A stretch of DNA of 64,000 bases, from the IMG/VR virus record IMGVR_UViG_3300013121_000033, positions 96,001-160,000 of that record; one strand, written 5' to 3'. Within the stretch, counting starts at the first letter, position 1; each line of letters opens with the position of its first letter. Below the pieces are notes generated by a model. It searched no databases. It was given only the letters and a program-made list of their open reading frames with translations, and was not told the origin of the DNA. The DNA is from a virus. Taxonomy: Duplodnaviria > Caudoviricetes. A program made the position numbers and the translations under genes. Shown piece by piece: positions 19,805 to 60,943 of the stretch.

Positions 19805-20791
19805 TCAGCCCGCTGGGAACCAGTAGACGGCGGCGTCCGGGGCGAGAGGATCGTGGAGGCGTCGAGGTTTGCTGCGCCCGTACTGCTCGATCATCGTGTC
19901 GATGAACTGGACGCCGACCTGGCCGGGTTCCCGTTGCCGCAACTGGACCGTCACCCCGTTGTGGGACACAGAGGTGGCGTTGGTGGGCAACGCGCATTGG
20001 TCGCTGCCGTCGAGTTGCAGGTGCATCTCGCATGCGAGGCGCTTCGCTGCACGGATGAGCGGGTCGGGGGGGGGTTCGCCGACGGCGATGTGGAACCACC
20101 ACGAGTTCTCGGCGCCGAGGGGTCGGTCCATGTCTTGCAGGGGCCACGGCAGCAGCGGTGATTCGTCGCCGTCCCAACCCTTCTGTGCGATGACGAACCG
20201 TTGGCGTTCGACCCGGTAGTAGTCGGGGGAGATCACCGTCCCGTTGACGTATACGCCGAGCACGGTGACCGGGCCGCGGACATAGTTGCGCAGGTCGATC
20301 TGGTCGGCGGGGGTGCGCCAGCGGCGCGTCGCACACCGGCGTGAGTCGGTGTACGGGCGGATCAGCGCTTCGCAGACCCCGGTCCAGTAGCCGCCGGTGG
20401 CGTCGAACAGCCAGCGTGTCGCCTCTGCGGCGAGGTCATCGGCGGTGTACCCGACGTCGTCGGGGATGGTGCAGTCGAGGTCGGAGCCGGTGATCCACGG
20501 GTCGCACGGGCCGCGGCGCAGCGCGTCGGGCGGTGCGACGGTGACGTCGACATCGGTGGCGGCCGATCCGGCGTCCGTGGCCGCCGTGACCGTGACGGGG
20601 TAGCGGCCGGGAATCGGGTAGGAGTGGGTGAACTCGTCACCGGGGGAGCCGGTCGACGTGCCGGTCCCCCAGTCGACGGTGATCGTGATGTCGCCGTCGT
20701 CGGCGTCGGTGGAGGTGATCGTCCACGCGACCTGTTCGGGCAGCGTCAGCGAAGTGGCGCCGGTGACGGTCGGGGCGGTGGGGACGGCCAT
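19805..20791 (-). CDS. Head-to-tail adaptor with N-terminal PKD/Ig-like domain
   Basis: N-terminal VDWG..THSY..PGRYPVTVTA (PKD signature); C-terminal 'AAKRLACE..CALP..TSVSHNGVT' adaptor-like motif. Confidence 0.7.
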   Translation of the reverse strand: MAVPTAPTVTGATSLTLPEQVAWTITSTDADDGDITITVDWGTGTSTGSPGDEFTHSYPIPGRYPVTVTAATDAGSAATDVDVTVAPPDALRRGPCDPWITGSDLDCTIPDDVGYTADDLAAEATRWLFDATGGYWTGVCEALIRPYTDSRRCATRRWRTPADQIDLRNYVRGPVTVLGVYVNGTVISPDYYRVERQRFVIAQKGWDGDESPLLPWPLQDMDRPLGAENSWWFHIAVGEPPPDPLIRAAKRLACEMHLQLDGSDQCALPTNATSVSHNGVTVQLRQREPGQVGVQFIDTMIEQYGRSKPRRLHDPLAPDAAVYWFPAG

Positions 20792-20817
20792 GGGGTCAAG
20801 TATCTACCGGGCGTGCG

Positions 20818-21030
20818 TCAGAACTCGATCCCGAGGCGATCGCACAGTTCACGGATCGCTGTGCGAGCGGCTTCGGCACGGGAGATGCGGCGGCCGCAGT
20901 CGGTGGTGAGACGGTCGGCGAGGCGGTCGAGAACGTCGGATTCGTCTTCGCTCATCGAGATCGACACGCCGACGCGTCGCTCTGACAGCGGCTTTCGAGT
21001 GCGGCGCGGTGGGGGCGGGGCCGTCATCAT
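20818..21030 (-). CDS. Ribbon-helix-helix-like DNA-binding protein
   Basis: RVGVSISMS strand followed by helices ..ISRAEAARTAIRE. Confidence 0.6.
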   Translation of the reverse strand: MMTAPPPPRRTRKPLSERRVGVSISMSEDESDVLDRLADRLTTDCGRRISRAEAARTAIRELCDRLGIEF

Positions 21031-21410
21031 TCGTCGTCGTCCTCGCCGAGCGCCATCCCCAAGAGCTTGTTGATGTGCAGGATGATGCCTTCGACGATGT
21101 GGAGCCACGGCTGTGCGGCGGCGACGGCCATCCACCAGATGAACCCGTAGACGAACCCGCCGCGTCGGTGGCGGCGAGTGGCGACAGTGACCGCAGCGGA
21201 GAACCAGACCCCGAGGCACCAGGGGCAGGTGATGAGGTCGAGGAACCAGCCGCGGATCGGGCCGCCTTTCTCGCACCATTCGTGGAGTGCTTCGCGTGGT
21301 TCGTCGAAGATCGTGTCCTCGATCGCCAGGCGGACGAGCCGGTAGGTGGCGCCGACGCTGAGCCCGTACAGCAGTGCTCGGTCAGCCGATGTGTTGCGTT
21401 GGGCAACCAT
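21027..21410 (-). CDS. DUF1360-like membrane protein
   Basis: ATYRLVRL..EDTI and LITCPWCLGVW motifs. Confidence 0.75.
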   Translation of the reverse strand: MVAQRNTSADRALLYGLSVGATYRLVRLAIEDTIFDEPREALHEWCEKGGPIRGWFLDLITCPWCLGVWFSAAVTVATRRHRRGGFVYGFIWWMAVAAAQPWLHIVEGIILHINKLLGMALGEDDDE

Positions 21411-21532
21411 GACGGAGGGAGGCTACCGACCGGGTTGCTGCGAGGCGCGCATCCTCGTCGAGGTTCGGACCGCCCGGCGCCACGCGCACGGCGCGGCGGG
21501 GAGGGAGAGGCGACGCGGGCAGCGCCGGACGG

Positions 21533-21913
21533 TCAGGGATTCCGCCGAACGGCGGCTTCGGTGTACCGCACGACGCCAGTGTCGTCGAGGTGGCGGTATG
21601 CGATCCACTCGGTCGTGCCGTCCTCGCCGATGTGGACAGCGACAACAGCGGGGAGGGCGGACGGGTCGGTGGCGAGGTAGTCGCCCCACTCGTCGGTGGC
21701 AGGGTGTCCCCAGGTGCGGTGCAGGACGGCGAACTCGCCAACTGCAATGTCGAGGTCGGCGAAGTAGCTGGCAGCCGTCGCCGCGGCCTCGACGGTGTCG
21801 TGGGTGTCGACCCCGGTGATGACAGACGTGGACGCGCCAACAGGGACCGCTGCGACGGCGTCGCGTCGGTCACCGGATGCGATGTAGTGCTCGATTGCCT
21901 CGACCACGTTCAT
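21533..21913 (-). CDS. Hypothetical protein
   Basis: TTGCCT-17-TATCAT promoter 7 nt upstream of ATG 21913. Confidence 0.6.
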   Translation of the reverse strand: MNVVEAIEHYIASGDRRDAVAAVPVGASTSVITGVDTHDTVEAAATAASYFADLDIAVGEFAVLHRTWGHPATDEWGDYLATDPSALPAVVAVHIGEDGTTEWIAYRHLDDTGVVRYTEAAVRRNP

Positions 21914-22006
21914 GGTGTTCATGATACGTCAACACCTTGTGTTAGGCAACATAACTCTGTGATGTGGAGCGGCCGCGTGACCGGTCCGCCCCGTACCCTG
22001 AACACC

Positions 22007-22447
22007 GTGCTGGCGACCCATCTATCCGTCGTGATCGCCGTCGGTGACCCCGGATTCCCGGAGTGGTTGTCGTCAGGTGGGTCGCTCGCTGTTCTCATCG
22101 GGGTCGTCGGCCTGTTCCTGTCAGGAAAGATCACCACGGCCAAGGACGTCGAAGAGCGGCTAGAGCAGCACCGTCACACCTGTGACGCTGAACTGCTTGC
22201 TGCAAGCACTCGCATCGAGTTGTTGTCCAACCACCTCGCCGACGTCACCCAGGACCGGGACAAGTGGCGCGAAGCAGCGGAGGAAGCCAACCGTGCTCTC
22301 GCGATGGCTGAGTCGACGACGGAGAAGGCGCTCGAATCGGGACGGATGGCGACAGCGCTTCTGGCCGCTCTGCAAACGGCGCTCGAACGTGGGTATCCCA
22401 AGGGTGAGTCTTCCATTCGAGGAACCGGAGATGGAGCCCCAACCTGA
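22007..22447 (+). CDS. Membrane-anchored coiled-coil protein (lysis cassette)
   Basis: N-terminal TM (GGSLAVLIGVVGLFLSG) then coiled coil; GTG 7 nt after TACCCT. Confidence 0.65.
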   Translation: MLATHLSVVIAVGDPGFPEWLSSGGSLAVLIGVVGLFLSGKITTAKDVEERLEQHRHTCDAELLAASTRIELLSNHLADVTQDRDKWREAAEEANRALAMAESTTEKALESGRMATALLAALQTALERGYPKGESSIRGTGDGAPT

Positions 22448-22628
22448 CATGGCAGCAGCGATCACACCGGCGTTGACCGCCGACCAGGCGCTCGCCCGCG
22501 CCCGCGCCTCCAAGGAACGTCTGACGGCCTGTGTCGAAGAGGTCGACCGGGTCCACGAAGCGACGACCCGGTTGACGAAGGCCAATCACTTCGTCGAGAT
22601 GTTCGAAGCCGTTCTCGCTGGGAGGTGA
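22431..22628 (+). CDS. Small helical protein (lysis cassette)
   Basis: GGAG RBS; C-terminal 'ANHFVEMFE' motif of the kind seen next to actinophage holins. Confidence 0.55.
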   Translation: MEPQPDMAAAITPALTADQALARARASKERLTACVEEVDRVHEATTRLTKANHFVEMFEAVLAGR

Positions 22629-22635
22629 CCAAGCC

Positions 22636-22998
22636 GTGATCGGGTTCCTTGATTGCGCCGTTCGTACCGGCGGGGGCTGCGCGCCTCAGGTGTACGGGTG
22701 GATGCTCGGGGCGGTGATCGCCTACGGGCTGGCCGCGTCGGTCGCGTTCCTCGTTGCCTGGTGGGGGGCAGACCCGCGCCGACCGTTGAAGTCGTCGTCG
22801 TATCTTGAGGTGTGGCTGACCCCCACCGTGTTCTCCGTCATCTACTTCCGCCAGTTGGTTCGCATCTTGCGAGCAGACACGGGGTTGGTGCTGATCGGAT
22901 GGTGGGACACCCTGTTCCAGGTTGCTGTCGTCGTGGGGATGACCACTATCGTCACGCTCCGATGGATGAACTGGCGGCGGACGACGGGACCGTCCTGA
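22636..22998 (+). CDS. Membrane protein (about 3 TM)
   Basis: Hydrophobic segments; operon context. Confidence 0.65.
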   Translation: MIGFLDCAVRTGGGCAPQVYGWMLGAVIAYGLAASVAFLVAWWGADPRRPLKSSSYLEVWLTPTVFSVIYFRQLVRILRADTGLVLIGWWDTLFQVAVVVGMTTIVTLRWMNWRRTTGPS

Positions 22999-23012
22999 AC
23001 GGGCTTCACCAG

Positions 23013-23342
23013 GTGACCGTCGGCGGGTGCACGTCGTATGGGGCGACGGTGTTGCTCGGGTTCGTGTGCACGCTCGGGTTCTTCGTCGCTCTCATCTACC
23101 TGGCCCGCCACCGGCCTCGCGGTGAAGCACTCCCCGCGTATGCGGCAGCGTTGGCGTCGCTGCTGTTCGACGCCAACGTGATCTGGCGTATCCAGTACGG
23201 CCCGGCGTCGAGGTTCGGGTCGTGGTGGCACTACGCGTCGTCGTTCGCGGCGTTCACGCTGGTGAACCTCTCAGTGGCGCTGCGTCTCTACAGGTGGCGG
23301 CTGAACCGTTTCAACTGGCCTACCGGCCCGCCGTCCGAGTAG
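23013..23342 (+). CDS. Membrane protein (about 3 TM)
   Basis: Hydrophobic segments; start uncertain. Confidence 0.55.
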   Translation: MTVGGCTSYGATVLLGFVCTLGFFVALIYLARHRPRGEALPAYAAALASLLFDANVIWRIQYGPASRFGSWWHYASSFAAFTLVNLSVALRLYRWRLNRFNWPTGPPSE

Positions 23343-23404
23343 CGGGGTCCCCCGGTTCGTGGGGGTTGCCTCGTATCCTCCGCGGTCAAGACGGAGGTGC
23401 ACAC

Positions 23405-23884
23405 ATGCTCGCTGAGACGACGGTAACGGCAGGCGCGGGGATGTTGACGGTGGCGGCAGCGACCGGCCTGGCTGCGACGGTGAAGAAGGCGTACGACTTG
23501 TCGAAGCAGGTCGCGAACCAGAACTGGCATGACGTGGTCGCGCAGCTACTCGCGTGGGGCCTCGGGGTGCTCGTGGTGTGGGCGTGGTCGAAGTCCGACA
23601 TCTACGGGGCCGCTGTGCAGTTGCCGGGTTCGGGGAACACGTTGGCGTCGGCGGACCTGTGGTCGGTCATCGTGATCGGCGTGACAGCCGGATCGACCGG
23701 TGGCGTCTTGTTCTCCGACATCCCGAAGGCGATCGACCGCACACAGACCGCAGCGATGCCGAAGCTGTTCCCCGGCGACAACGATCCGCTGGCGACAGTG
23801 CCGCCTGTCGCCCCCCCGGTCCCAGTGCAGACGGTCGGTCAGGTGGGGGTGCCCGCCCATTTCCCTCAGTGGCCCTCGGACTGA
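23405..23884 (+). CDS. Putative holin
   Basis: GGAGG RBS; about 3 TM segments; upstream of the endolysin. Confidence 0.6.
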   Translation: MLAETTVTAGAGMLTVAAATGLAATVKKAYDLSKQVANQNWHDVVAQLLAWGLGVLVVWAWSKSDIYGAAVQLPGSGNTLASADLWSVIVIGVTAGSTGGVLFSDIPKAIDRTQTAAMPKLFPGDNDPLATVPPVAPPVPVQTVGQVGVPAHFPQWPSD

Positions 23885-23919
23885 CCGGTTCGGGGGAACC
23901 GACGCCGACAGTGGCGGAG

Positions 23920-24063
23920 ATGGACGAAGTGGCCCTCTGGGCGTACGACGGCGTCGAGGGCGTCGCCATCGTCAACATCGACGACGAGGACACCCACGAG
24001 GACCGGGTCCCGAGGCACGGGTGGACCCCCCGCTTCTGGACCGACCCGAGGCGGTACGCATAG
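23920..24063 (+). CDS. Small acidic hypothetical protein
   Basis: MDEVALWAYD..., abuts the endolysin start. Confidence 0.45.
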   Translation: MDEVALWAYDGVEGVAIVNIDDEDTHEDRVPRHGWTPRFWTDPRRYA

Positions 24064-24801
24064 ATGCCGGTCCTGTCGCAGACGGGGCTCGCGAAGGCGT
24101 GGGGGCCGCCGTGCACTGGTGAACGCCTCTCGATCAAGCTGTTCGGCACCGGGGTCGTCACGGTCCGAGCGTCGCTCGGTGACGCCGTCCTCGCGTTCGA
24201 CGCGTGCTGCCGCTACTACAACTACCCGACCCGCCGCATCGACACCGGCGCCTACGCATGCCGCAAGAAGCGGGGCCTGTCTGGCTGGTCGAACCACGCG
24301 TACGCGACGGCCATGGACATCAACTGGCTGTCGAACCTGTACGGCCGGAAGCTCGTCACGGACATGCCCCCCGAGTTCCGGGCCGCGTTCAAAGCGATCC
24401 GCACGAAGAGCGGAGTCCAGGTGTGGGGTTGGGGCGGGGACTGGAAAGGCATCAAAGATGCCATGCATGTCGAGGTCATTTGTTCTCCCGCCGATATCTG
24501 GTCGGGGATCGACCCGGCAACGGTCCCGGGCGGGATGCAGTGGCCGCCGCCACCGCCAGTTACCGGCACGCCGGTCGAGGACGCTCCCCCCGAGCAGGAG
24601 GAAGAGGACATGGTCATCTACCAGCAGAACTACGGGAAGGGGTTCGCGGCGCTGTCGAACGGCGGCTACCTCGTGTACCTCGACTCAGAGCAGTTGGCGT
24701 TCTGGGAGGGCCGGATGAACGTCCCGAAGGAAGTCGTGATCGCACGCGAGTGGGACCTGATCCGTACCGTGCACATCAACGGCCAGTCGGTGCCCCGCTA
24801 G
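24064..24801 (+). CDS. Endolysin, M15-family metallopeptidase
   Basis: SNHAYATAMDIN (SxHxxxxAxD), WGGDW and DAMHVE zinc-ligand motifs. Confidence 0.88.
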   Translation: MPVLSQTGLAKAWGPPCTGERLSIKLFGTGVVTVRASLGDAVLAFDACCRYYNYPTRRIDTGAYACRKKRGLSGWSNHAYATAMDINWLSNLYGRKLVTDMPPEFRAAFKAIRTKSGVQVWGWGGDWKGIKDAMHVEVICSPADIWSGIDPATVPGGMQWPPPPPVTGTPVEDAPPEQEEEDMVIYQQNYGKGFAALSNGGYLVYLDSEQLAFWEGRMNVPKEVVIAREWDLIRTVHINGQSVPR

Positions 24802-24812
24802 CCCGGCACCAG

Positions 24813-24830
24813 GTGACCCTACGAGGTCAC
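24813..24830. terminator. Hairpin between the endolysin and the convergent tRNA operon
   Basis: GTGACC-CTACGA-GGTCAC. Confidence 0.4.
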
Positions 24831-24837
24831 TCGCCAG

Positions 24838-24911
24838 TGTCCCCAGTCGGATTCGAACCGACGATGACCGGAGTGAAAGTCCGGCGACTTGGACCGCTAG
24901 TCGATGGGGGC
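24838..24911 (-). tRNA. tRNA-Glu(TTC)
   Basis: Cloverleaf; CCGGA-CT-TTC-AC-TCCGG anticodon arm; TTCGAAT T loop; C2:A71 mismatch; no encoded CCA. Confidence 0.9.
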
Positions 24912-24912
24912 T

Positions 24913-24988
24913 TGGCACCGCGCACGAGATTCGAACTCGTAACCTCCGCCGTGAGAAGGCGGTGTGCTGCCAGTTGCACCAGCGCGGC
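24913..24988 (-). tRNA. tRNA-Glu(CTC)
   Basis: CCGCC-TT-CTC-AC-GGCGG anticodon arm; encoded CCA. Confidence 0.92.
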
Positions 24989-25018
24989 TCGAACTACAAG
25001 AGGCCATCGGGTGCAGCG

Positions 25019-25091
25019 TTCCGAGGGGAGGACTCGAACCTCCGGCCTCCCGATCCAGAGTCGGGCGTTCCGCCAACTGAACTACCTCGGA
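25019..25091 (-). tRNA. tRNA-Gln(CTG)
   Basis: TCCGAGG/CCTCGGA acceptor (U1-A72); CCCGA-CT-CTG-GA-TCGGG anticodon arm. Confidence 0.92.
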
Positions 25092-25093
25092 GC

Positions 25094-25136
25094 GGTGGGG
25101 GCTCCCCGAGGCGTGACGCGTTCGGGGAGCTACACC
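25094..25136 (-). promoter_or_regulatory. Putative attenuator/switch hairpin after the leader ORF
   Basis: GGTG-TA-GCTCCCCGAACGCG-TCA-CGCCTCGGGGAGC-CC-CCACC begins at the leader stop codon. Confidence 0.6.
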
Positions 25137-25189
25137 TGGCGCTGCGGCCGACGGCCGGTGCGCTCTCGATGTTCTCGACGCCGAAGCAT
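25130..25189 (-). CDS. Putative leader peptide MLRRREHRERTGRRPQRQV of the Gln/Glu tRNA operon
   Basis: ATG 7 nt after TGTGG-TACCGT; contains GAA, GAG and CAG x2. Confidence 0.55.
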   Translation of the reverse strand: MLRRREHRERTGRRPQRQV

Positions 25190-25194
25190 GCCGG

Positions 25195-25713
25195 TCACGG
25201 TACCACAGCAAGCGGCGACCACGACAAGTCATTCATGGCGTCGAGCAGGACGGCACGGGCAGGCGTCTCGACAGATGCCGGAGGGTCGAGCCAGCCGTCA
25301 GGGTTGAGAACGCTCTGTATCAAGGTGCGGCACCCGCGCTCGGCTGCCCATGCGCCGATGACGATGTGAGCGAGTATCGACGTCGACCCAGACCAACCGC
25401 CGCCCGTGTCGGTGATCCGGGTGTTGACCTCGATGAACGCTTCGCCGGGCCACACGCCGTCTGGTCGGCAGGAGGAGTCGTACTCGGCGAGGTTTCGTTC
25501 GAGCCCGGCATTCACAGTGAACCCCCAGCTTCCCCCGGCGTGCACCCCTTCCGGTATCCACCATTGCCAGGTGCCGCCGAGGTCCGGGTAGTCGTGGTGC
25601 GGGATCGGCTCGACACGGGGGCGGAGAGTGTGGAGCAGGCGGGCGACGGCGTCGCGTAACTCGACCGGGTTCACCGGGTCGAGGAACCGGACGGCGGAGT
25701 CGGGCGCGGTCAC
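25195..25713 (-). CDS. Hypothetical protein
   Basis: GTGA-coupled start. Confidence 0.6.
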   Translation of the reverse strand: MTAPDSAVRFLDPVNPVELRDAVARLLHTLRPRVEPIPHHDYPDLGGTWQWWIPEGVHAGGSWGFTVNAGLERNLAEYDSSCRPDGVWPGEAFIEVNTRITDTGGGWSGSTSILAHIVIGAWAAERGCRTLIQSVLNPDGWLDPPASVETPARAVLLDAMNDLSWSPLAVVP

Positions 25714-26294
25714 GTCCGTCCGAACCCGGGTACCGGGGTGGGCTGCCACGATGGGAGTTGTGGACGATGCGCGGCGATCCACGCCTTGACGCGCTCACGA
25801 ATCGTTGAAGCCGATGGCGGGGTGATGTCGAGCGCCCAGTACAAGGTGCAGTAGTAGGCGACGTCGGCGACGACGCCGACCACTGTCGCAGTACCGGTCA
25901 TGACCGTCTCGTGTCTCGCCGCCATGACCGTTGTCCATGCGTAGAAGAACAGGTCGATGACGAGGAACACGGGTGCGGCGCGCCGGGCGGCGTGGACGAT
26001 GTTGACCGGGATCATGCCGTGACGGTTGGCTTGCCGTTCGACATCACTGAGATGCCGCCAGTAGAGAACACACACGCCGGACCACGCGGCGAACAGGACC
26101 CAATCGCCGACCGAGTCCCAATACTCCGGGGTCATGGCGGTACGGGCTGTCTCGCAGGCGAGGTACACGGTCATCGACACGCGGGTGAGCGTGAAGTTCG
26201 ACCAGCCCGTCACCCGGTGCGCGGCTCGGAGTGCCCGATGGAACCACGGTGCGACGGCGCGGTCGACGCGAGGCAGGTACGGGTGGAGCCTCAT
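25710..26294 (-). CDS. Membrane protein
   Basis: ATGA coupling; about 4 hydrophobic segments. Confidence 0.65.
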   Translation of the reverse strand: MRLHPYLPRVDRAVAPWFHRALRAAHRVTGWSNFTLTRVSMTVYLACETARTAMTPEYWDSVGDWVLFAAWSGVCVLYWRHLSDVERQANRHGMIPVNIVHAARRAAPVFLVIDLFFYAWTTVMAARHETVMTGTATVVGVVADVAYYCTLYWALDITPPSASTIRERVKAWIAAHRPQLPSWQPTPVPGFGRT

Positions 26295-27244
26295 GACACC
26301 TGCCGTTGGCGAAGCTGGTAGGCGGATGTCTGGCAGGACCGCGAGCAGTAGCTCGGGACGCGGCCGCGGCGGCCGGTCGGGTGCGGCGGGAGGGTGTTCG
26401 AGCAGTCCGGGTGGGCGCAGGGGCGTTCGGGGGCAACGATCGCCGCGTTGGCGCGCACGGGGAGCGGCACGGGGACAGCGGCGCTTTCGCGGTGGCTGGT
26501 GGCGAACATGACGTCGCGTCGGTCGTCGGGGCAGAGGCGGCACGTCACACAGGCGCCGACGCCGTCGTCCATGAGGGAGAGGCGCCGGTTGTTCTCGGGG
26601 CATGCGACGGCGTCGTGGCCGGGGACGAGAGCGCGGGCAGTCGAGTAGTCGACGGCGCACAGCGCGAGACGGACCCCGGGATGGCGTGCCCGCACCGCTT
26701 CGGCGTCGGGGGCGTTCTCGGCGTCGACGGACAGGTAGAGGGCGAGGTTGGGGAGGCCGACGAACTCGGCGACAACGTCAACCGGTGGGCGGAAACTGCG
26801 GGTGTACGCCCAGAACTGGATGTCGCGGTGCCGGTCGATCACCGTCGCCCACGCTCGGGCGTAGTCAACGGAGAAGAAGTCGCCGTCCCAGTGGATGCGG
26901 AACAGGCGAAGTTCGGGGGGGAGCGCGGCGCGTGTCGCTGCCCGGTCGAACCTGCCAATCATCTCGTCGAGCAGGCCGGTCATCGCGTCGACGGTGCCCG
27001 CGGCTTGGAGGACGCGCAGGTTGTACTCGACCGCGGCGCGGACCCCGGCGGACTGCTCCGATCGGGACGCGTAGCAAGACCGGCAGAACTCGGTGGCGCC
27101 GGGACATGACGTGCCGGAGGGGAGGCCGAAGCTGTTGTGGATCGTCGCGAGCCACCGGCGGCGCGACGGCTGATAGATGCCGAGGGGGGCGACCTTGCGG
27201 TCCCGGCTGAGCTTGAGCTTGTCGTTCACGGTGTCGCTCTCCAC
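26291..27244 (-). CDS. Mycobacteriophage gp88-like Fe-S (radical SAM-like) protein
   Basis: SCPGATEFCRSCYA cysteine cluster, FRIHWDGDF, FWAYTRS, NLALYLSVD; additional C-terminal Cys motifs. Confidence 0.8.
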   Translation of the reverse strand: MESDTVNDKLKLSRDRKVAPLGIYQPSRRRWLATIHNSFGLPSGTSCPGATEFCRSCYASRSEQSAGVRAAVEYNLRVLQAAGTVDAMTGLLDEMIGRFDRAATRAALPPELRLFRIHWDGDFFSVDYARAWATVIDRHRDIQFWAYTRSFRPPVDVVAEFVGLPNLALYLSVDAENAPDAEAVRARHPGVRLALCAVDYSTARALVPGHDAVACPENNRRLSLMDDGVGACVTCRLCPDDRRDVMFATSHRESAAVPVPLPVRANAAIVAPERPCAHPDCSNTLPPHPTGRRGRVPSYCSRSCQTSAYQLRQRQVS

Positions 27245-28497
27245 ACTTGCATGCCCTCGGCCGGACGGCCGCCCTCAACGAACACGGGGGCAATCCATCG
27301 TGTCTCGTACCACCAGTCGTCGCGCGGACCGCATCGTGCCCGCCGGAAGTGGCCGCGCCGCCAATGGGACTTCACGGTCCGATCGGCGGAGTGCTCCGAG
27401 TCCCGGGTTCGTTCCGACGGGGTCAGGTCGATGACCCGCACCTTCGGAGCGAACCGGCCGCGGGTGGCGTCACGGCGTGCGGACGATGTCCCCTTGCGGG
27501 CCGCCTTCGCGTCGGCTGCGGTGAACGGTTCGGCGTCACCGAAGATTGCTGACGGTTCCGGCGCCTTGAGCGACACGAGCGCCGCGACGCCGTGAGCGAA
27601 CCCACGAAGGTTCGACCGGGAGAGACGCCCTGGGATCGGGGCGACGCAGAGGAACTGTGCAGCGTTGTCCATGTCGGGGAAGGCGCTCGCGCCTTCGATC
27701 GTACGACCGAGGGCAGTGGCGGGTTTGGTGAGGTCGACGCCGCCTTCGATAATCCAGATGACCTCGTCAGCGAGGCCGACACCGCCCGGCCCGGCAGAGA
27801 GGACGATGCCGACGATCCGCCAGTCGTTGTCGACAAACGACATGTGCGCGGCGAGCATCCGAGGGAGCGGGTCCCTGGCCCCGTGTTCCGGCGTCCGGAA
27901 GTAATGCGGGTGGTAGATGGTGGCGTTGGTGGGGCGGAACGGGACAGACAGGGTGACGCAGACCCGTTCGAACGGGAGGTGGATGTTCTCGACTACGTCC
28001 GGGGGTGGGGCGTCGGTGTGGTCGAGCGCGTCGCACAACGATGCCGTCATGAACACGTCGTGGGCGGTGGACAGCGCGCCGCTCAACGGGGGGTCCCACA
28101 CGGTCGCCATGCGGCGGAGGTAGAGACAGTGAACGGGGGCGAGTCGGCCGGTGGCCGAGTCTGGCGTGATGATGCCAGCGACGGCGTCCTGCTGGTCGAC
28201 GTCGGGGGCATCAGGCAGGTCGTCGAGCGGGAACGGCCCCTGTTCTTCCCCAAACGTCGAATCGCCGTCATCGGCGGCAGCAGCAAGGTCAGCGTCATCG
28301 AGGGCGTAGAGCCGGACCATCACCCAACCTTGGCGTTCCAATGCAGCCTGGCGAGCTTCGATTTCTTCCAGTTTCGACTGTGCCGCTGCCACCTCGCTGC
28401 CAGCGAGTTGGAGCAGAAGATCGTCAACGATCGACGACGACTCGACTCGTGGGGGGATCAGGGCGAACGATTTCAGGTTGTCCGGCAGGTCGATCAT
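27226..28497 (-). CDS. Hypothetical phage protein with C-terminal HWRRGHFR motif
   Basis: VKSHWRRGHFRRARCGP..RWIAPVFV motif recurrent in phage proteins of unknown function. Confidence 0.7.
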   Translation of the reverse strand: MIDLPDNLKSFALIPPRVESSSIVDDLLLQLAGSEVAAAQSKLEEIEARQAALERQGWVMVRLYALDDADLAAAADDGDSTFGEEQGPFPLDDLPDAPDVDQQDAVAGIITPDSATGRLAPVHCLYLRRMATVWDPPLSGALSTAHDVFMTASLCDALDHTDAPPPDVVENIHLPFERVCVTLSVPFRPTNATIYHPHYFRTPEHGARDPLPRMLAAHMSFVDNDWRIVGIVLSAGPGGVGLADEVIWIIEGGVDLTKPATALGRTIEGASAFPDMDNAAQFLCVAPIPGRLSRSNLRGFAHGVAALVSLKAPEPSAIFGDAEPFTAADAKAARKGTSSARRDATRGRFAPKVRVIDLTPSERTRDSEHSADRTVKSHWRRGHFRRARCGPRDDWWYETRWIAPVFVEGGRPAEGMQVWRATP

Positions 28498-29003
28498 GCT
28501 GCTTCGATCGAGAGGGACACAACGACTCCGCCGCCACGGGCAGAGAGATCGGCGCCGTAGGGGAACTGGGTGTCGAACATGTTGACGGTCGGTTGGATCA
28601 TCTCGGGGACAGCGCCGGGGTGGAAGCGGAGCAGCCCGCGGTAGGGGCCTGCACCGTTGAGCGTGACGACGACCGGAGTTGGGGGCTTGCCGTGACACTC
28701 GACGTAGCTGACCGTTCCGCAGTAGCGGAACCGGTTCTGTTCGTCGCACCACGCGTGCATCTGCCACGGTTCACCGCGGTTCGAGATCAGCGGCCACGCC
28801 GCCGCTGCGACACCGTGGACTGTCGCAAGGGACGTCGACGCGATGTCGAGCATGGTGGCGTCGTTGTAGCCGACCCGGAACCGGTGGCGTCCGCCGGGGT
28901 GGGCGCGGTGGAACTCGGCGAGCCCGTCGGCGCGGGTGTAGCGGCCGTCGTTGCCGTCCGGGGCGAGGAACCAGACGGCGAGGAACTGGTCGACGTTGGT
29001 CAT
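28494..29003 (-). CDS. Hypothetical protein
   Basis: 3' portion of ORF 28494..29873; coupled to neighbours. Confidence 0.6.
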   Translation of the reverse strand: MTNVDQFLAVWFLAPDGNDGRYTRADGLAEFHRAHPGGRHRFRVGYNDATMLDIASTSLATVHGVAAAAWPLISNRGEPWQMHAWCDEQNRFRYCGTVSYVECHGKPPTPVVVTLNGAGPYRGLLRFHPGAVPEMIQPTVNMFDTQFPYGADLSARGGGVVVSLSIEAA

Positions 29004-29005
29004 CG

Positions 29006-30232
29006 TCACGCTGCCTTGCATCGGGTGAGGACCGTCTCGTGGCGGCCCTGGTAGGTGTCGTGCTTCTTGACGGTGCCGGTGAAGGTGATCGGCTCTCCGG
29101 CCTCTCGGGCTTCGTCGGCGGCGTCGGCGAAGCTGGTGGTGCAGCCGGTGAACACCTTGACCCACCCGGCGGTCGTGGCGACCACGATGACCGCCTGTGT
29201 GCCCCACTGGTTCTCGAAGCAGGAGAACCGGGTGACTCGACCGGTCAGCGTGACCCGCTCGCCCTCGGCGCCGACCCAGGCGTCGGGCACCTCGGCGTCG
29301 GCGGCTTCGCGGGCCTTGCGTTCTGCGATCCGGCCCTGCTCCCGGTCCCACGCCGACACTGCCGACACCGCCAGGCCCAGGCCCTTCGGGCGGACCCAGT
29401 CGTTGTCGAGGACGGCGACCAGGTTGGCGAGGTAGTCGTTGCCTTCGGGGTCGATGCTGCGGACCCAGTCGACGATCCGCTGCGCTTCGGCGGCGTGAGT
29501 GCCGCTGTGCAGGTCGTCGCGGGCGGCCTTGACGTCGTCGTCGTCGTAGCTCCTCGGGGTCAGGATCGAGGCGACGTCGGCCTTGGTGGGGGCTTCGAAG
29601 CTGGCGGGCTTCCACCCCCACCGGCGGACCGCGACGATCGCTGCCTCGATCACCACGTTGGTGTCCCACCCCCAGTCGACGTGACCGCCGCCCCAGCCGT
29701 CGTCGGGCTCGTCGAGCAGGTCGGCCGTGACGTCCATGTACCAGATCAGCCGGGCGGGGTCGACACCGAGGTAGTCGCGGACGCAGGTCGTGCCGACCCG
29801 GACCAGGTTGCCGTCGGTGTCGGCGACGACGATGAGCTTGTTGCGGCGCAGGTGGCGGTCGCAGTGGTCGCACACGCTGACGGTGCGGAACGCCTCGGGG
29901 AGGGTGAACCCGTTGACCGAGTTGAGGAGGACGTTCGGGGCGGCGGTGGCGAAGTCGATGGTTCCGGCGAGCTTCCAGTCGCCGGGGAGGGCGACGGGGG
30001 CGACGGTGATGGTGACGTCGTGGACGATCTCCCAGCGGTCGACGGGGTCCGTCTCGGCGCTGACCTTGACGCTGCGGGCGTCGCTGACGGTCAGGGTGAC
30101 GTCGCCGTCGAGGCCCTTCTTCGCGATGCGGTCGTGGAGCTTCGCGACCCGTTCGCGGATCACAGCGACACCGGCGGCCGAAACGGTGGCCGTGGTGACG
30201 CCTTCCTGGTCGGTGGTCTGGTCGTTGTCCAT
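29006..30232 (-). CDS. Hypothetical protein with Zn-binding motif and C-terminal OB-fold-like domain
   Basis: CDHC...VGTTC; C-terminal ITFTGTVKKHDTYQGRHETVLTR; MDND start after the conserved promoter. Confidence 0.75.
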   Translation of the reverse strand: MDNDQTTDQEGVTTATVSAAGVAVIRERVAKLHDRIAKKGLDGDVTLTVSDARSVKVSAETDPVDRWEIVHDVTITVAPVALPGDWKLAGTIDFATAAPNVLLNSVNGFTLPEAFRTVSVCDHCDRHLRRNKLIVVADTDGNLVRVGTTCVRDYLGVDPARLIWYMDVTADLLDEPDDGWGGGHVDWGWDTNVVIEAAIVAVRRWGWKPASFEAPTKADVASILTPRSYDDDDVKAARDDLHSGTHAAEAQRIVDWVRSIDPEGNDYLANLVAVLDNDWVRPKGLGLAVSAVSAWDREQGRIAERKAREAADAEVPDAWVGAEGERVTLTGRVTRFSCFENQWGTQAVIVVATTAGWVKVFTGCTTSFADAADEAREAGEPITFTGTVKKHDTYQGRHETVLTRCKAA

Positions 30233-32240: not shown

Positions 32241-32280
32241 GGCGTCGAACCCTACCCTTGCGTTGTGGTCACGTCAACGC
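32229..32280 (-). promoter_or_regulatory. Conserved promoter/operator, copy 3
   Basis: TTGACG-17-TAGGGT-8-ATGGACAACGAC; GCGTTG-N9-CAACGC. Confidence 0.8.
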
Positions 32281-32328
32281 TTCGGAAAGTCGGGCGGTGG
32301 GGTTGACTCGGGTGGTACCGTGGCCCTC

Positions 32329-32376
32329 GTGCGTTCCCGTCTCCAACAGCGTCGCTGGCCTCAGCCACCGCTCTAG
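32329..32376 (+). CDS. Putative leader peptide MRSRLQQRRWPQPPL of the Pro/Trp/Gln tRNA operon
   Basis: GTG 7 nt after GGTGG-TACCGT; contains CAA, TGG, CCG (also CAG, CCT, CCA). Confidence 0.55.
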   Translation: MRSRLQQRRWPQPPL

Positions 32377-32421
32377 CTCCACCGGAACGCGCCCAAGATC
32401 ACCCGAGCGTCCCGGCGGAGC
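32376..32421 (+). promoter_or_regulatory. Putative attenuator hairpin after the leader ORF
   Basis: GCTCC-ACCGG-AACGC...GCGT-CCCGG-CGGAGC starting at the stop codon. Confidence 0.55.
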
Positions 32422-32488
32422 GGAAGCCCGCACGGGGCTCTCTTGGAGTGGTGGCCGAAGCCAGCCGACAAGGGACCCCCGGACACCA

Positions 32489-32564
32489 CGGGGTGTAGCC
32501 CAGCGGCCAGGGCACCTGCTTCGGGAGCAGGGGATCGGGAGTTCGAGTCTCCCCACCCCGACCA
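32489..32564 (+). tRNA. tRNA-Pro(CGG)
   Basis: CGGGGTG acceptor; CCTGC-TT-CGG-GA-GCAGG anticodon arm; encoded CCA. Confidence 0.93.
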
Positions 32565-32583
32565 GGTCGCCCCACCGAAACGA

Positions 32584-32656
32584 AGGGGTGTAGCTCAGCG
32601 GCGAGAGCAGCGGCTTCCAAACCCGCGTGTCGGGGGTTCGAATCCCTCCACCCCTG
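32584..32656 (+). tRNA. tRNA-Trp(CCA)
   Basis: AGGGGTG/CACCCCT acceptor with G73; GCGGC-TT-CCA-AA-CCCGC (C31:C39 mismatch). Confidence 0.9.
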
Positions 32657-32660
32657 CTGA

Positions 32661-32733
32661 TGGCCCGTAGTTCAACTGGCGGAACGCCCGACTTTGGATC
32701 GGGAGGTTGCAGGTTCGAGCCCTGCCGGGCCAG
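32661..32733 (+). tRNA. tRNA-Gln(TTG)
   Basis: TGGCCCG/CGGGCCA acceptor; CCCGA-CT-TTG-GA-TCGGG anticodon arm. Confidence 0.93.
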
Positions 32734-33132
32734 CTACACCGACGCTGCGCGTGCGCGGTCGTTCTCGTGGGTGACGTCGCAGGCGGGGCACTGGCCTTCG
32801 GGTTTGATGTCGCGGGTCAGGTGGTTGTGGCGGGTCGGGTCGACCCTGCCTTGGATCGAGATGGGGACGGCGCTCTTGAGGAACGAGAGCAGCTTCGCAG
32901 CGGTGTGTTCCATGTCGCTGACGCTGCGCCTCTCCTCGATGTCTATGGACAGGCGGCGGGCCTTGCGGAACGCGGCACCGAGGGACGCCATGTCGAGGGC
33001 GCCGTGGACGACGACGTTGCGGCCGAGGGGGGCGTCACCGGGGTCCTCGTTGATCGCGGCGGCCAGGTCGCGTGGCGACCAGGGACCGGGGTCGTCGACC
33101 TCGATGAGCAGGATGCGGCGGGGCTTGTCCAT
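32734..33132 (-). CDS. Hypothetical protein
   Basis: MDKPRRILL start 8 nt after TAACGT; C-terminal H.H..CPACD motif. Confidence 0.6.
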   Translation of the reverse strand: MDKPRRILLIEVDDPGPWSPRDLAAAINEDPGDAPLGRNVVVHGALDMASLGAAFRKARRLSIDIEERRSVSDMEHTAAKLLSFLKSAVPISIQGRVDPTRHNHLTRDIKPEGQCPACDVTHENDRARAASV

Positions 33133-50949: not shown

Positions 50950-51630
50950 CTAGTACCCCTTCGCTTGTCGATGTCGTTCGTTGCCGATGTGGGTGACCCA
51001 CGGGCCATCATCGCGTGCACCCCAGTAGCCGACGGTGATGGTCGGGTCTGCGAACAGGCGGGTCGTCCATGCCGACTCAGACTGCGGGTCGGGCGGCCAT
51101 CCTTCACGGCAGACGATGGAGCGGTGCAGCGACGGGTTCGTCGTCCAGAACCGGCGGTGTTCAAGCCACGGCCACCCGGCTGTCTCACGGTCCGTGAACG
51201 ACTCGGGGGCGAGTTCGACGACGCCGCCAGCGGCGATCTCGTCGCCGTTGACCGGCTGGCGGCGCAACGCGATCTGCGCGACGTGAGGGTGGAGTTCGAG
51301 TAGGTGCGCGACGGCGTCGAGGTTGACCGCCCGGTTGTAGATGAAGTCGTCCTCGGTGGAGAACACAAAGGGTTCTGGGACGTGGCGGGCGATGTGGGTC
51401 CAGGCGTGCCGGTAAGCGCCACCGAAACCAGAGCGACCAGGGGTCGTGACGACACCCCACCCCGGGTAGCGAGACGTGAGCATCGCGGCATGTTCGGGGT
51501 CGCCGGAGTCGTCGTGGATCAGGCGACGGGTGATGCGGCCGTGGATGTTGTCGAGCAGGGACGCGATCGACTCGTGGAGGTACCGGTCGCGGCCATCGGT
51601 CATGACGACGAGACAGATCGACGGGACCAT
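50950..51630 (-). CDS. Glycosyltransferase family 2-like
   Basis: VMTDGRDRYL, IHDDSG, STEDDF, HIG. Confidence 0.8.
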   Translation of the reverse strand: MVPSICLVVMTDGRDRYLHESIASLLDNIHGRITRRLIHDDSGDPEHAAMLTSRYPGWGVVTTPGRSGFGGAYRHAWTHIARHVPEPFVFSTEDDFIYNRAVNLDAVAHLLELHPHVAQIALRRQPVNGDEIAAGGVVELAPESFTDRETAGWPWLEHRRFWTTNPSLHRSIVCREGWPPDPQSESAWTTRLFADPTITVGYWGARDDGPWVTHIGNERHRQAKGY

Positions 51631-58525: not shown

Positions 58526-58562
58526 CCGACGGATGATAGCGGTTCCGTCACTTCGTCACTCG

Positions 58563-60852: not shown

Positions 60853-60890
60853 CGCACCAGCCTACCGCGGCGTTGACGTCACGTCAACGC
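60841..60890 (-). promoter_or_regulatory. Conserved promoter/operator, copy 8 (perfect palindrome)
   Basis: GCGTTGACGT-G-ACGTCAACGC; TTGACG-17-TAGGCT-6-ATGGTCAACGAC. Confidence 0.85.
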
Positions 60891-60943
60891 TCGGAAAGTG
60901 ATTGACGAGGGTTGGGGGAACCCGGCAAGGTGGATACCTCAAT

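Follow-up and report, generated by a model that had tools for sequence, protein, structure and literature searches.

What decides when a phage makes its own transfer RNAs (tRNAs)? The role of phage tRNAs is debated, with proposals such as compensation for codon usage and resupply of tRNAs that host defences have destroyed (PMC10264068, PMC11555353), and no published account of the regulation of phage tRNA genes was found in the literature searched. The question is raised by positions 25085–25136 of a 64,000-nucleotide (nt) stretch of phage DNA (the window; ~67% GC, 26 tRNA genes), which comprises bases 96001–160000 of the 225,159-base-pair (bp) Caudoviricetes record IMGVR_UViG_3300013121_000033. 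The segment runs into the 5' end of tRNA-Gln(CTG), the first gene of a Gln(CTG)/Glu(CTC)/Glu(TTC) operon. Our analysis suggests that it acts as expression platform in an attenuator of three segments, which the ribosome operates and which controls this operon; to the full model we give a probability of about 0.42. The parts of the operon, in window coordinates, are as follows.

25197–25206, minus strand: extended -10-like box GTGGTACCGT (TGG + TACCGT), within the final codons of the upstream orphan gene 25782–25195 and 7 nt from the ATG
25130–25189, minus strand: leaderless 19-codon open reading frame (ORF) MLRRREHRERTGRRPQRQV + UAG (25132–25130), with its ATG at 25189 and the cognate codons GAA6, GAG9, CAG16 and CAG18
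25122–25130, minus strand: segment 1, the hairpin 5' arm GCUCCCCGA, whose first base is the G of the UAG; a terminating ribosome would cover this arm
25101–25112, minus strand: segment 2, GCCUCGGGGAGC, the shared partner, which serves as hairpin 3' arm or as anti-acceptor
25084–25093, minus strand: segment 3, GCUCCGAGGU, pre-tRNA -2 to +8, that is, the 5' acceptor strand of tRNA-Gln plus U8
25018–25091, minus strand: tRNA-Gln(CTG) (ARAGORN; Rfam RF00005, 67.3 bits)
24913–24988, minus strand: tRNA-Glu(CTC) (ARAGORN; Rfam)
24837–24911, minus strand: tRNA-Glu(TTC), the final gene of the operon (ARAGORN; Rfam)

Segment 2 can enter two helices. In the minimum-energy fold, a 9-bp hairpin joins GCUCCCCGA (25130–25122) to UCGGGGAGC (25109–25101), with a 9-nt spacer between its 3' arm and tRNA-Gln. 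For the 61-nt hairpin stretch, the folding energy was -26.8 kcal/mol (z = -2.67), a level that 2 of 200 shuffles also reached. When the 5' arm was masked in RNAfold, GCCUCGGGG (25112–25104) paired with CUCCGAGGU (25092–25084), supplemented by the pair G25102–C25094. This segment 2:3 helix consists of 9 bp, two of them G-U, plus the one extra pair, and takes up nt -1 and 1–8 of tRNA-Gln; positions 25110–25112 pair with the tRNA strand only and lie outside the hairpin. The best duplex between the 38-nt spacer, which separates the leader ORF from the tRNA, and tRNA nt 1–10 reached -14.0 kcal/mol, compared to -8.5 ± 1.8 kcal/mol for dinucleotide shuffles (P = 0.009). Both folds had been proposed in the first-pass annotation of this DNA, and their coordinates, sequences and pairings were correct. 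The alternative helix exists but had been drawn slightly short, as RNAfold prefers a somewhat better and longer version. The further claims that the folds exclude each other (segment 2 is common to both), that masking the 5' arm populates the alternative helix (RNAfold and partition function) and that no U tract follows the hairpin were borne out in silico.

To describe the choice between the two helices, the ribosome was represented by keeping the bases from -15 to +12, counted from the first A-site base, unpaired, and partition functions were calculated on the full pre-tRNA. Capture was defined as the share of tRNA-Gln nt 1–7 paired with upstream RNA. It was 0.02 without a ribosome and 0.00–0.03 for A-site codons 2–16, and rose to 0.44, 0.92, 0.73 and 0.89 with codons 17, 18, 19 and the stop codon, respectively, in the A site. 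The switch amplitude, comparing the stop codon with stalls at GAA6, GAG9 and CAG16, was 0.88 and was reached by none of 150 shuffled leaders. With the ribosome on the stop codon, the captured state had an advantage of 4.8–6.0 kcal/mol over the best of the states that keep the native cloverleaf. When no ribosome was present, and for stalls at GAG9 or CAG16, the hairpin together with an intact acceptor stem was favoured in energy. In silico, ribosome position thus chooses between mutually exclusive helices. The expectation from the first pass that a ribosome at the stop codon masks the 5' arm agrees with this model, where the A-site footprint extends ~12 nt downstream, to 25120. Its companion, that stalling at Glu and Gln codons frees the tRNA, applies to GAA6, GAG9 and CAG16 and fails at CAG18, where capture is 0.92.

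The resulting mechanism would operate as follows. Transcription would begin with the A at 25189, the first base of the ATG, so that the messenger RNA (mRNA) is leaderless, and 70S ribosomes would translate its 19-codon leader. When Gln or Glu codons are decoded slowly, the ribosome would wait upstream, segment 1 would pair with segment 2, and the 5' strand of tRNA-Gln would stay free. The cloverleaf would then form and RNA polymerase would proceed through the three tRNA genes (ON). When decoding is fast, the ribosome would arrive at the UAG and cover segment 1, and segment 2 would take the nascent 25092–25084 before the 3' strand of the tRNA exists (OFF). The OFF event would be premature termination or arrest in the U-rich stretch of the D arm, possibly aided by a factor, which would silence the whole operon; blocked maturation of tRNA-Gln by RNase P would be a side effect. 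The stop-codon hairpin would serve as the antiterminator, and perhaps also as a pause site that synchronises ribosome and polymerase.

Is the short ORF really a leader that senses decoding? At the Gln locus, the arrangement of TGG-TACCGT, 7 nt and ATG fits a leaderless start with a predicted transcript start, and a short ORF of predicted translation stands directly upstream of the tRNA genes. The same design heads five tRNA operons: Gln/Glu/Glu; Pro/Trp/Gln; His followed by Asn/Arg/Lys/Lys/Arg; Phe/Thr/Thr/Thr/Arg/Asp/Gly; and Ser/Ser. In each of them, a TAnnGT box is followed after exactly 7 nt by ATG or GTG, which opens an ORF of 15–36 codons. The elements at the other four loci are given below; L083 denotes the stretch after the window, in which, for example, L083:4726–5124 corresponds to genome 164726–165124.

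Window 32312–32376, plus strand: Pro-locus leader, GTGGTACCGT box, 7 nt and the 15-codon VRSRLQQRRWPQPPL + UAG; holds CAA, CAG, UGG and CCG
Window 32376–32421, plus strand: Pro-locus hairpin (GCUCC...GGAGC), which opens at the G of the UAG
Genome 165363–165253 (L083:5253–5363), minus strand: His leader, containing RRKRRRGLRHRN, before His/Asn/Arg/Lys/Lys/Arg
Genome 168250–168158 (L083:8158–8250), minus strand: Phe leader MRSTLTIRTFPTAGPRGITDTTGIGGGRCR, before Phe, three Thr, Arg, Asp and Gly
Genome 177454–177407 (L083:17407–17454), minus strand: Ser leader VIRSSLSSSSPEGSS, before Ser/Ser

Cognate codons were assigned by standard wobble rules. For each of the 21 tRNAs of these operons, one or more cognate codons were present in the leader of its own operon; no leader completely covered the tRNA set of another operon. 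The joint chance of full coverage at the five loci was ~5e-8 with gene codon usage and ~1e-7 with the usage of short ORFs. Enrichment of cognate codons over gene usage gave P = 0.033, 0.0035, 0.0035, 0.021 and 3e-6 for the five leaders, and a combined P = 1.4e-5 was obtained against dinucleotide shuffles of each leader. The Gln leader covers 3/3 tRNAs with 4 of its 18 codons cognate, and the Pro leader covers Pro(CGG), Trp(CCA) and Gln(TTG) with 5/14 (P = 0.0035). The most striking leaders are those of the Ser operon and of the Phe operon, the latter with seven Thr codons plus the rare AGG and ACA. The leader frame held 38 cognate codons, compared to 6 and 20 in the other two frames. Because the signal is frame-specific, reading by a ribosome is favoured over direct tRNA binding. 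Moreover, the leader frame was the sole closed frame with full tRNA coverage in each upstream region; at the Gln locus, a longer GTG-started version of the same frame is closed too. A codon match as a generic property of ORFs before phage tRNAs was rejected, as no enrichment was found at 12 tRNA sites of the Streptomyces phage MeganTheeKilla. Within the present phage, no leader was found at the Met and Ala/Val tRNA clusters. Since all five leader-bearing operons have the same promoter, leaderless ORF and codon match, the Gln leader is very probably a genuine codon-matched decoding sensor.

The Gln and Pro loci resemble each other most closely at their promoters. The 10-mer GTGGTACCGT occurs twice in 225 kilobases (kb), each time 7 nt before the leader of a tRNA operon (Gln, Pro). 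Both leaders end in UAG, and the G of this stop codon is the first base of a hairpin that begins GCUCC (TAG-CTCC in the DNA); clear similarity in their alignment is confined to the promoter box and the TAG-CTCC junction. This is suggestive of paralogy of the two loci but does not establish it. In the Pro operon (region 32312–32734), ~67 nt of further structured spacer separates the hairpin from tRNA-Pro (32489), and the Trp, Pro and Gln codons of the leader are predicted to pair with a segment ~70–95 nt downstream. The Pro, Phe and Ser leaders have CGTTC(G/C)NCG(C/T)T(C/G) near their 5' ends in common, which suggests common descent. Comparison of tRNA-Gln(CTG) with its paralogue tRNA-Gln(TTG) (25018–25091 vs 32661–32734) revealed differences in 5 of 7 acceptor base pairs and at 8 of 58 positions outside the acceptor stem, the body being ~86% identical. 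Such divergence of the acceptor stem would fit co-adaptation with the leader, without proving it.

Leaderless starts are apparently common in this phage. Genome-wide, ATG or GTG was strongly enriched 6–8 nt behind TANNNT (43, 20 and 24 cases, compared to 3–11 at other spacings), and most of these starts open ORFs of at least 100 codons. The enrichment before long ORFs indicates that the phage makes wide use of leaderless mRNAs. Its nearest large-terminase matches are Streptomyces phages such as phiBT1 and phiC31, at ~33% identity. The host is probably actinobacterial, given the leaderless genes, gene-end hairpins that lack a U tract and this terminase affinity. Actinobacteria use leaderless mRNAs widely (cf. 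PMC4633059).

The OFF output would most likely be premature termination, which is the outcome we prefer. The direct-path barrier from the captured state to hairpin plus cloverleaf was ~9.4 kcal/mol and the reverse barrier was 32.8 kcal/mol. These findpath values were obtained with clean states, and an over-complicated OFF structure gave 18.5 kcal/mol. By a rough rate estimate, the captured state would relax within seconds of ribosome release. Because the captured state would relax this fast and the native state would then be locked, an irreversible OFF event such as termination is needed. An operon-wide output is favoured because codons for both tRNA-Glu appear in the Gln leader, and none of the five leaders omits any tRNA of its operon. 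As to the site of termination, the captured helix reaches tRNA nt 7–8, and the sequence behind it, (U)AGUUCAGUU, would form a weaker RNA-DNA hybrid than any other nearby. Within the D arm, AGUUCAGUU follows segment 3, and no other stretch in the vicinity is as rich in U. With tRNA nt 7 as the end of the helix, the 10-nt tail is UAGUUCAGUU, with 5 U. None of the 135 gene-end hairpins in the genome has at least 5 U in its 10-nt tail. These hairpins have long perfect GC stems of up to 17 bp (-30 to -38 kcal/mol), and a U tract follows none of them (0/135). No consensus intrinsic terminator, that is, a GC hairpin with a U run behind it, was found in 24500–26000, and a canonical intrinsic terminator at the locus was rejected.

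Several observations weigh against the attenuator. The codon CAG18 lies two codons before the stop codon, and a stall there would mask segment 1 and give the OFF state in the model. The equilibrium preference of ~5 kcal/mol leaves tRNA tertiary structure out. The 2:3 helix contains two G-U pairs, has no U run behind it and is far weaker than the long gene-end hairpins, and the anti-acceptor partner alone did not exceed shuffles (11 nt tested). The codon enrichment of the Gln leader is modest when taken by itself (P = 0.033 for gene usage, 0.001 for short ORFs and 0.059 for dinucleotide shuffles). The tRNA strands at the Phe and Pro loci were captured in every state, and the result for His was inconsistent. 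Finally, no relative of the locus was found in isolate phages, IMG/VR, JGI metagenome contigs or a protein collection.

The searches behind this last point covered several parts of the region. Megablast and blastn against isolate phages returned distant tRNA matches only, and the exact 46-mer and degenerate 29-mer of tRNA-Gln had no match in IMG/VR or JGI metagenome contigs. The upstream orphan protein had no match in IMG/VR and matched only itself among 5.8 billion proteins, and a 1038-amino-acid protein neighbouring other tRNA loci had no match. A gene near the locus was assigned to Pfam GP88; this GP88-like neighbour matched only unrelated phages with at most 51% GC, at ~40% identity. Relatives of the terminase with 66–98% identity were found on fragments of 5–17 kb only. 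For the adjacent peptidase, homologues of at most 54% identity were found, on contigs with no tRNA close to them. That peptidase gene converges on the operon beyond tRNA-Glu(TTC):

24064–24801, plus strand: peptidase_M15 gene

Among the alternatives, the best survivor keeps the leader as a real sensor and treats the pairing with the tRNA strand as incidental. The stop-codon hairpin would then be a pause site or a U-less 'I-shaped' terminator suppressed by a nearby ribosome, or Rho would load on the C-rich spacer after the ribosome leaves. We consider this unlikely, with evidence on both sides. The apparent terminators of this phage are GC hairpins without a U tract, and in M. tuberculosis conditional termination has been linked to Rho and translated upstream ORFs (bioRxiv 10.1101/2022.06.01.494293). 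The Pro locus has a similar stop-codon hairpin even though it lies ~67 nt from its tRNA, and no anti-acceptor was found at the His leader. However, the complementarity of spacer and tRNA (P = 0.009) and the switch amplitude (0/150) exceed those of shuffles, and the 9-bp hairpin is much weaker than the 13–17-bp gene-end stems. A terminating hairpin would also give regulation of the wrong sign for homeostasis, as stalls at GAA6, GAG9 and CAG16 would permit termination and lower tRNA production when tRNA is scarce.

A second alternative retains the same switch between 1:2 and 2:3 pairing and limits its output to folding of tRNA-Gln and its processing by RNase P, transcription being unaffected. 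A gate of this kind had been put forward in the first-pass annotation; the switch itself is plausible, whereas an output on tRNA-Gln only is at odds with the Glu codons and with the ~9 kcal/mol barrier. The captured strand is exactly the substrate strand of RNase P, the helix lacks a canonical U tract, and the leaderless short-ORF attenuators of mycobacteria sequester a downstream site and do not terminate (bioRxiv 10.1101/834739). The gate would nevertheless reach only the first of three tRNAs, although the leader has one codon for each tRNA-Glu. With the ~9 kcal/mol barrier, the trap would dissolve soon after ribosome release, and the ON fold, once formed, would be effectively irreversible (32.8 kcal/mol). 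We therefore regard this gate as improbable.

Very unlikely, lastly, is that nothing here is regulatory, with the hairpin being a terminator, 3'-stabilising stem-loop or processing landmark of the orphan gene 25782–25195 and the ORF and 9-bp complementarity arising by chance in 67% GC DNA: the hairpin lies 65 nt past the stop codon of the orphan gene, which no other hairpin ends, GC-rich post-gene hairpins are common (36% at -18 kcal/mol or better) and the codon enrichment is marginal at the Gln locus alone, yet all five leader-bearing operons repeat the design with codon coverage that is complete and specific, the 10-nt promoter box recurs exactly at the Pro locus and nowhere else, and the tRNAs would be left without a promoter of their own. 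Intragenic controls folded nearly as well as gene ends, so that the hairpin alone says little in either direction.

Does the attenuator with a tRNA strand as its third segment extend beyond the Gln locus? Complementarity between spacer and tRNA was significant at the Phe locus (P = 0.004; 9 + 4 + 3 bp, extending into the D arm), borderline at the Ser locus (P = 0.066) and absent at the Pro and His loci. In the ribosome model, a ribosome-dependent switch appeared at the Gln and Ser loci only. The Ser tRNA strand was captured at 0.59 without a ribosome and at 0.5–0.6 with a ribosome at codons 10 to stop, and was free (0.00–0.03) with a ribosome on codons 3–9, which include four cognate Ser codons. 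This behaviour was matched by 4.7% of shuffles and resembles a four-segment attenuator in the model. At the Gln, Phe and Ser loci, the best upstream partner of the anti-acceptor lies at or next to the stop codon, a position that is not significant individually. Pairing with the acceptor strand as a general property of pre-tRNA leaders was rejected, since five other tRNAs of the genome without such leaders gave P = 0.09–0.6. The tRNA-strand switch is thus supported at two or three of the five loci and is not universal. For the whole phage, we tentatively see as possible a set of tRNA-shortage sensors, in which every leader-bearing operon opens with a leaderless ORF that tests decoding of the codons of the operon's own tRNAs and, at the Gln/Glu locus and probably at Ser and Phe, the 5' acceptor strand of the first tRNA serves as the third arm of the switch.

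The proposed system shares its logic with the trpL, hisL, thrL and ilvL attenuators (modelled in PMC1183508), in which leader codons are linked to the product and ribosome position sets exclusive helices. As in enterobacterial attenuators, a stall means ON and full reading means OFF, and the multivalent thrL and ilvL leaders likewise name several amino acids. Unlike trpL-type attenuators, the phage system would control tRNAs and not enzymes, would use a leaderless mRNA and has three segments in place of four. Its regulatory codons are scattered and form no runs, and the 3' arm of its OFF helix would be the 5' acceptor strand of the leading tRNA, with no GC hairpin and U run. A second precedent is provided by the leaderless polycysteine short ORFs of mycobacteria (Canestrari et al., bioRxiv 10.1101/834739). 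There, as is predicted for the phage, the ORF stands at the 5' end of the transcript, stalled ribosomes decide whether a downstream site is sequestered in a duplex, and several loci act in parallel. In the phage, by contrast, the next gene is a tRNA, the captured site is its 5' acceptor strand, and the signal would be decoding of the operon's own codons, which are not arranged in tracts.

A similar leader was found in the cultured Caulobacter phage phiCbK (JX100813, positions 51341–51439), where TTGACA-17-TAGGGT-7-ATG precedes a 32-codon ORF in which 10 of 31 codons are cognate. This leader covers all tRNAs of a Phe/Val/Ile/Ile/Val/Gln/Gln block; other phiCbK blocks were weaker. Both phages thus have a promoter-like box, 7 nt, a start codon and a codon-matched, predicted leaderless leader before a tRNA block. 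They differ in that phiCbK has an annotated rho-independent terminator (GC stem + UUUU) well apart from the first tRNA, whereas the present phage lacks one and has the tRNA strand in the role of alternative partner. No paper on the codon-matched leader of phiCbK was found, nor was any account of leader peptides controlling tRNA genes found in the literature searched. T-box RNAs likewise respond to the state of a specific tRNA and regulate translation-apparatus genes, but they bind the tRNA directly and without translation. A T-box or other catalogued cis-regulatory RNA was rejected at this locus, as no Rfam family matched. With E ≤ 1, Rfam searches of 20000–30000 and 160–180 kb returned tRNAs only, save for weak sub-threshold chance matches over tRNA genes.

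Other features of the tRNA regions were observed. At the His operon, tRNA-His and the Asn/Arg/Lys/Lys/Arg block are 455 nt apart, and the gap holds a leaderless 132-codon gene in antisense orientation (genome 164726–165124, plus strand); a transcript reading through from the His leader into the block would be antisense to it. Near the Ser operon, the loop of a gene-end hairpin at genome ~177456–177491 encloses the -10 box of the Ser leader. Upstream of tRNA-Met(CAT), the -10-like box TATCAT stands exactly 7 nt before the first base of the tRNA (window 58526–58538, minus strand); its transcript may start at the mature 5' end, without a leader for RNase P to remove. The 11-mer GTCACGTCAAC occurs in 20 copies in the 225-kb genome, at sites that include window 60872–60899 and 32268–32290 (plus strand). 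The copy at 60872 sits within the palindrome GTTGACGTCACGTCAAC upstream of the Ala/Val tRNA cluster, and another lies just upstream of the Pro leader promoter. The complement of GTCACGTCAAC contains TTGACG, and the 11-mer may be a phage-specific promoter or operator element. The 86-nt tRNA-Lys(CTT) (L083:4428–4513, minus strand) has a long extra arm and a weak Rfam reading resembling transfer-messenger RNA. Just downstream of tRNA-Gly(CCC), a 119-nt sub-threshold tRNA-like match (28.5 bits; L083:7279–7397, minus strand) could be a degenerate or interrupted tRNA.

If the attenuator model is correct, attenuation, which is known for amino-acid and synthetase genes, would extend to tRNA genes. With a leader that measures decoding of the codons of the downstream tRNAs, the phage would read tRNA shortage directly. 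The new element would be the tRNA's own acceptor strand, used as a switch arm in place of a terminator arm in a compact, high-GC version of the classical design. In that case, one and the same tRNA gene would be the product of its attenuator and also supply half of it, namely the terminator or sequestor. In such a phage, the tRNAs would be switched on upon depletion of host tRNAs, for example by anticodon nucleases or by phage-induced host shut-off.

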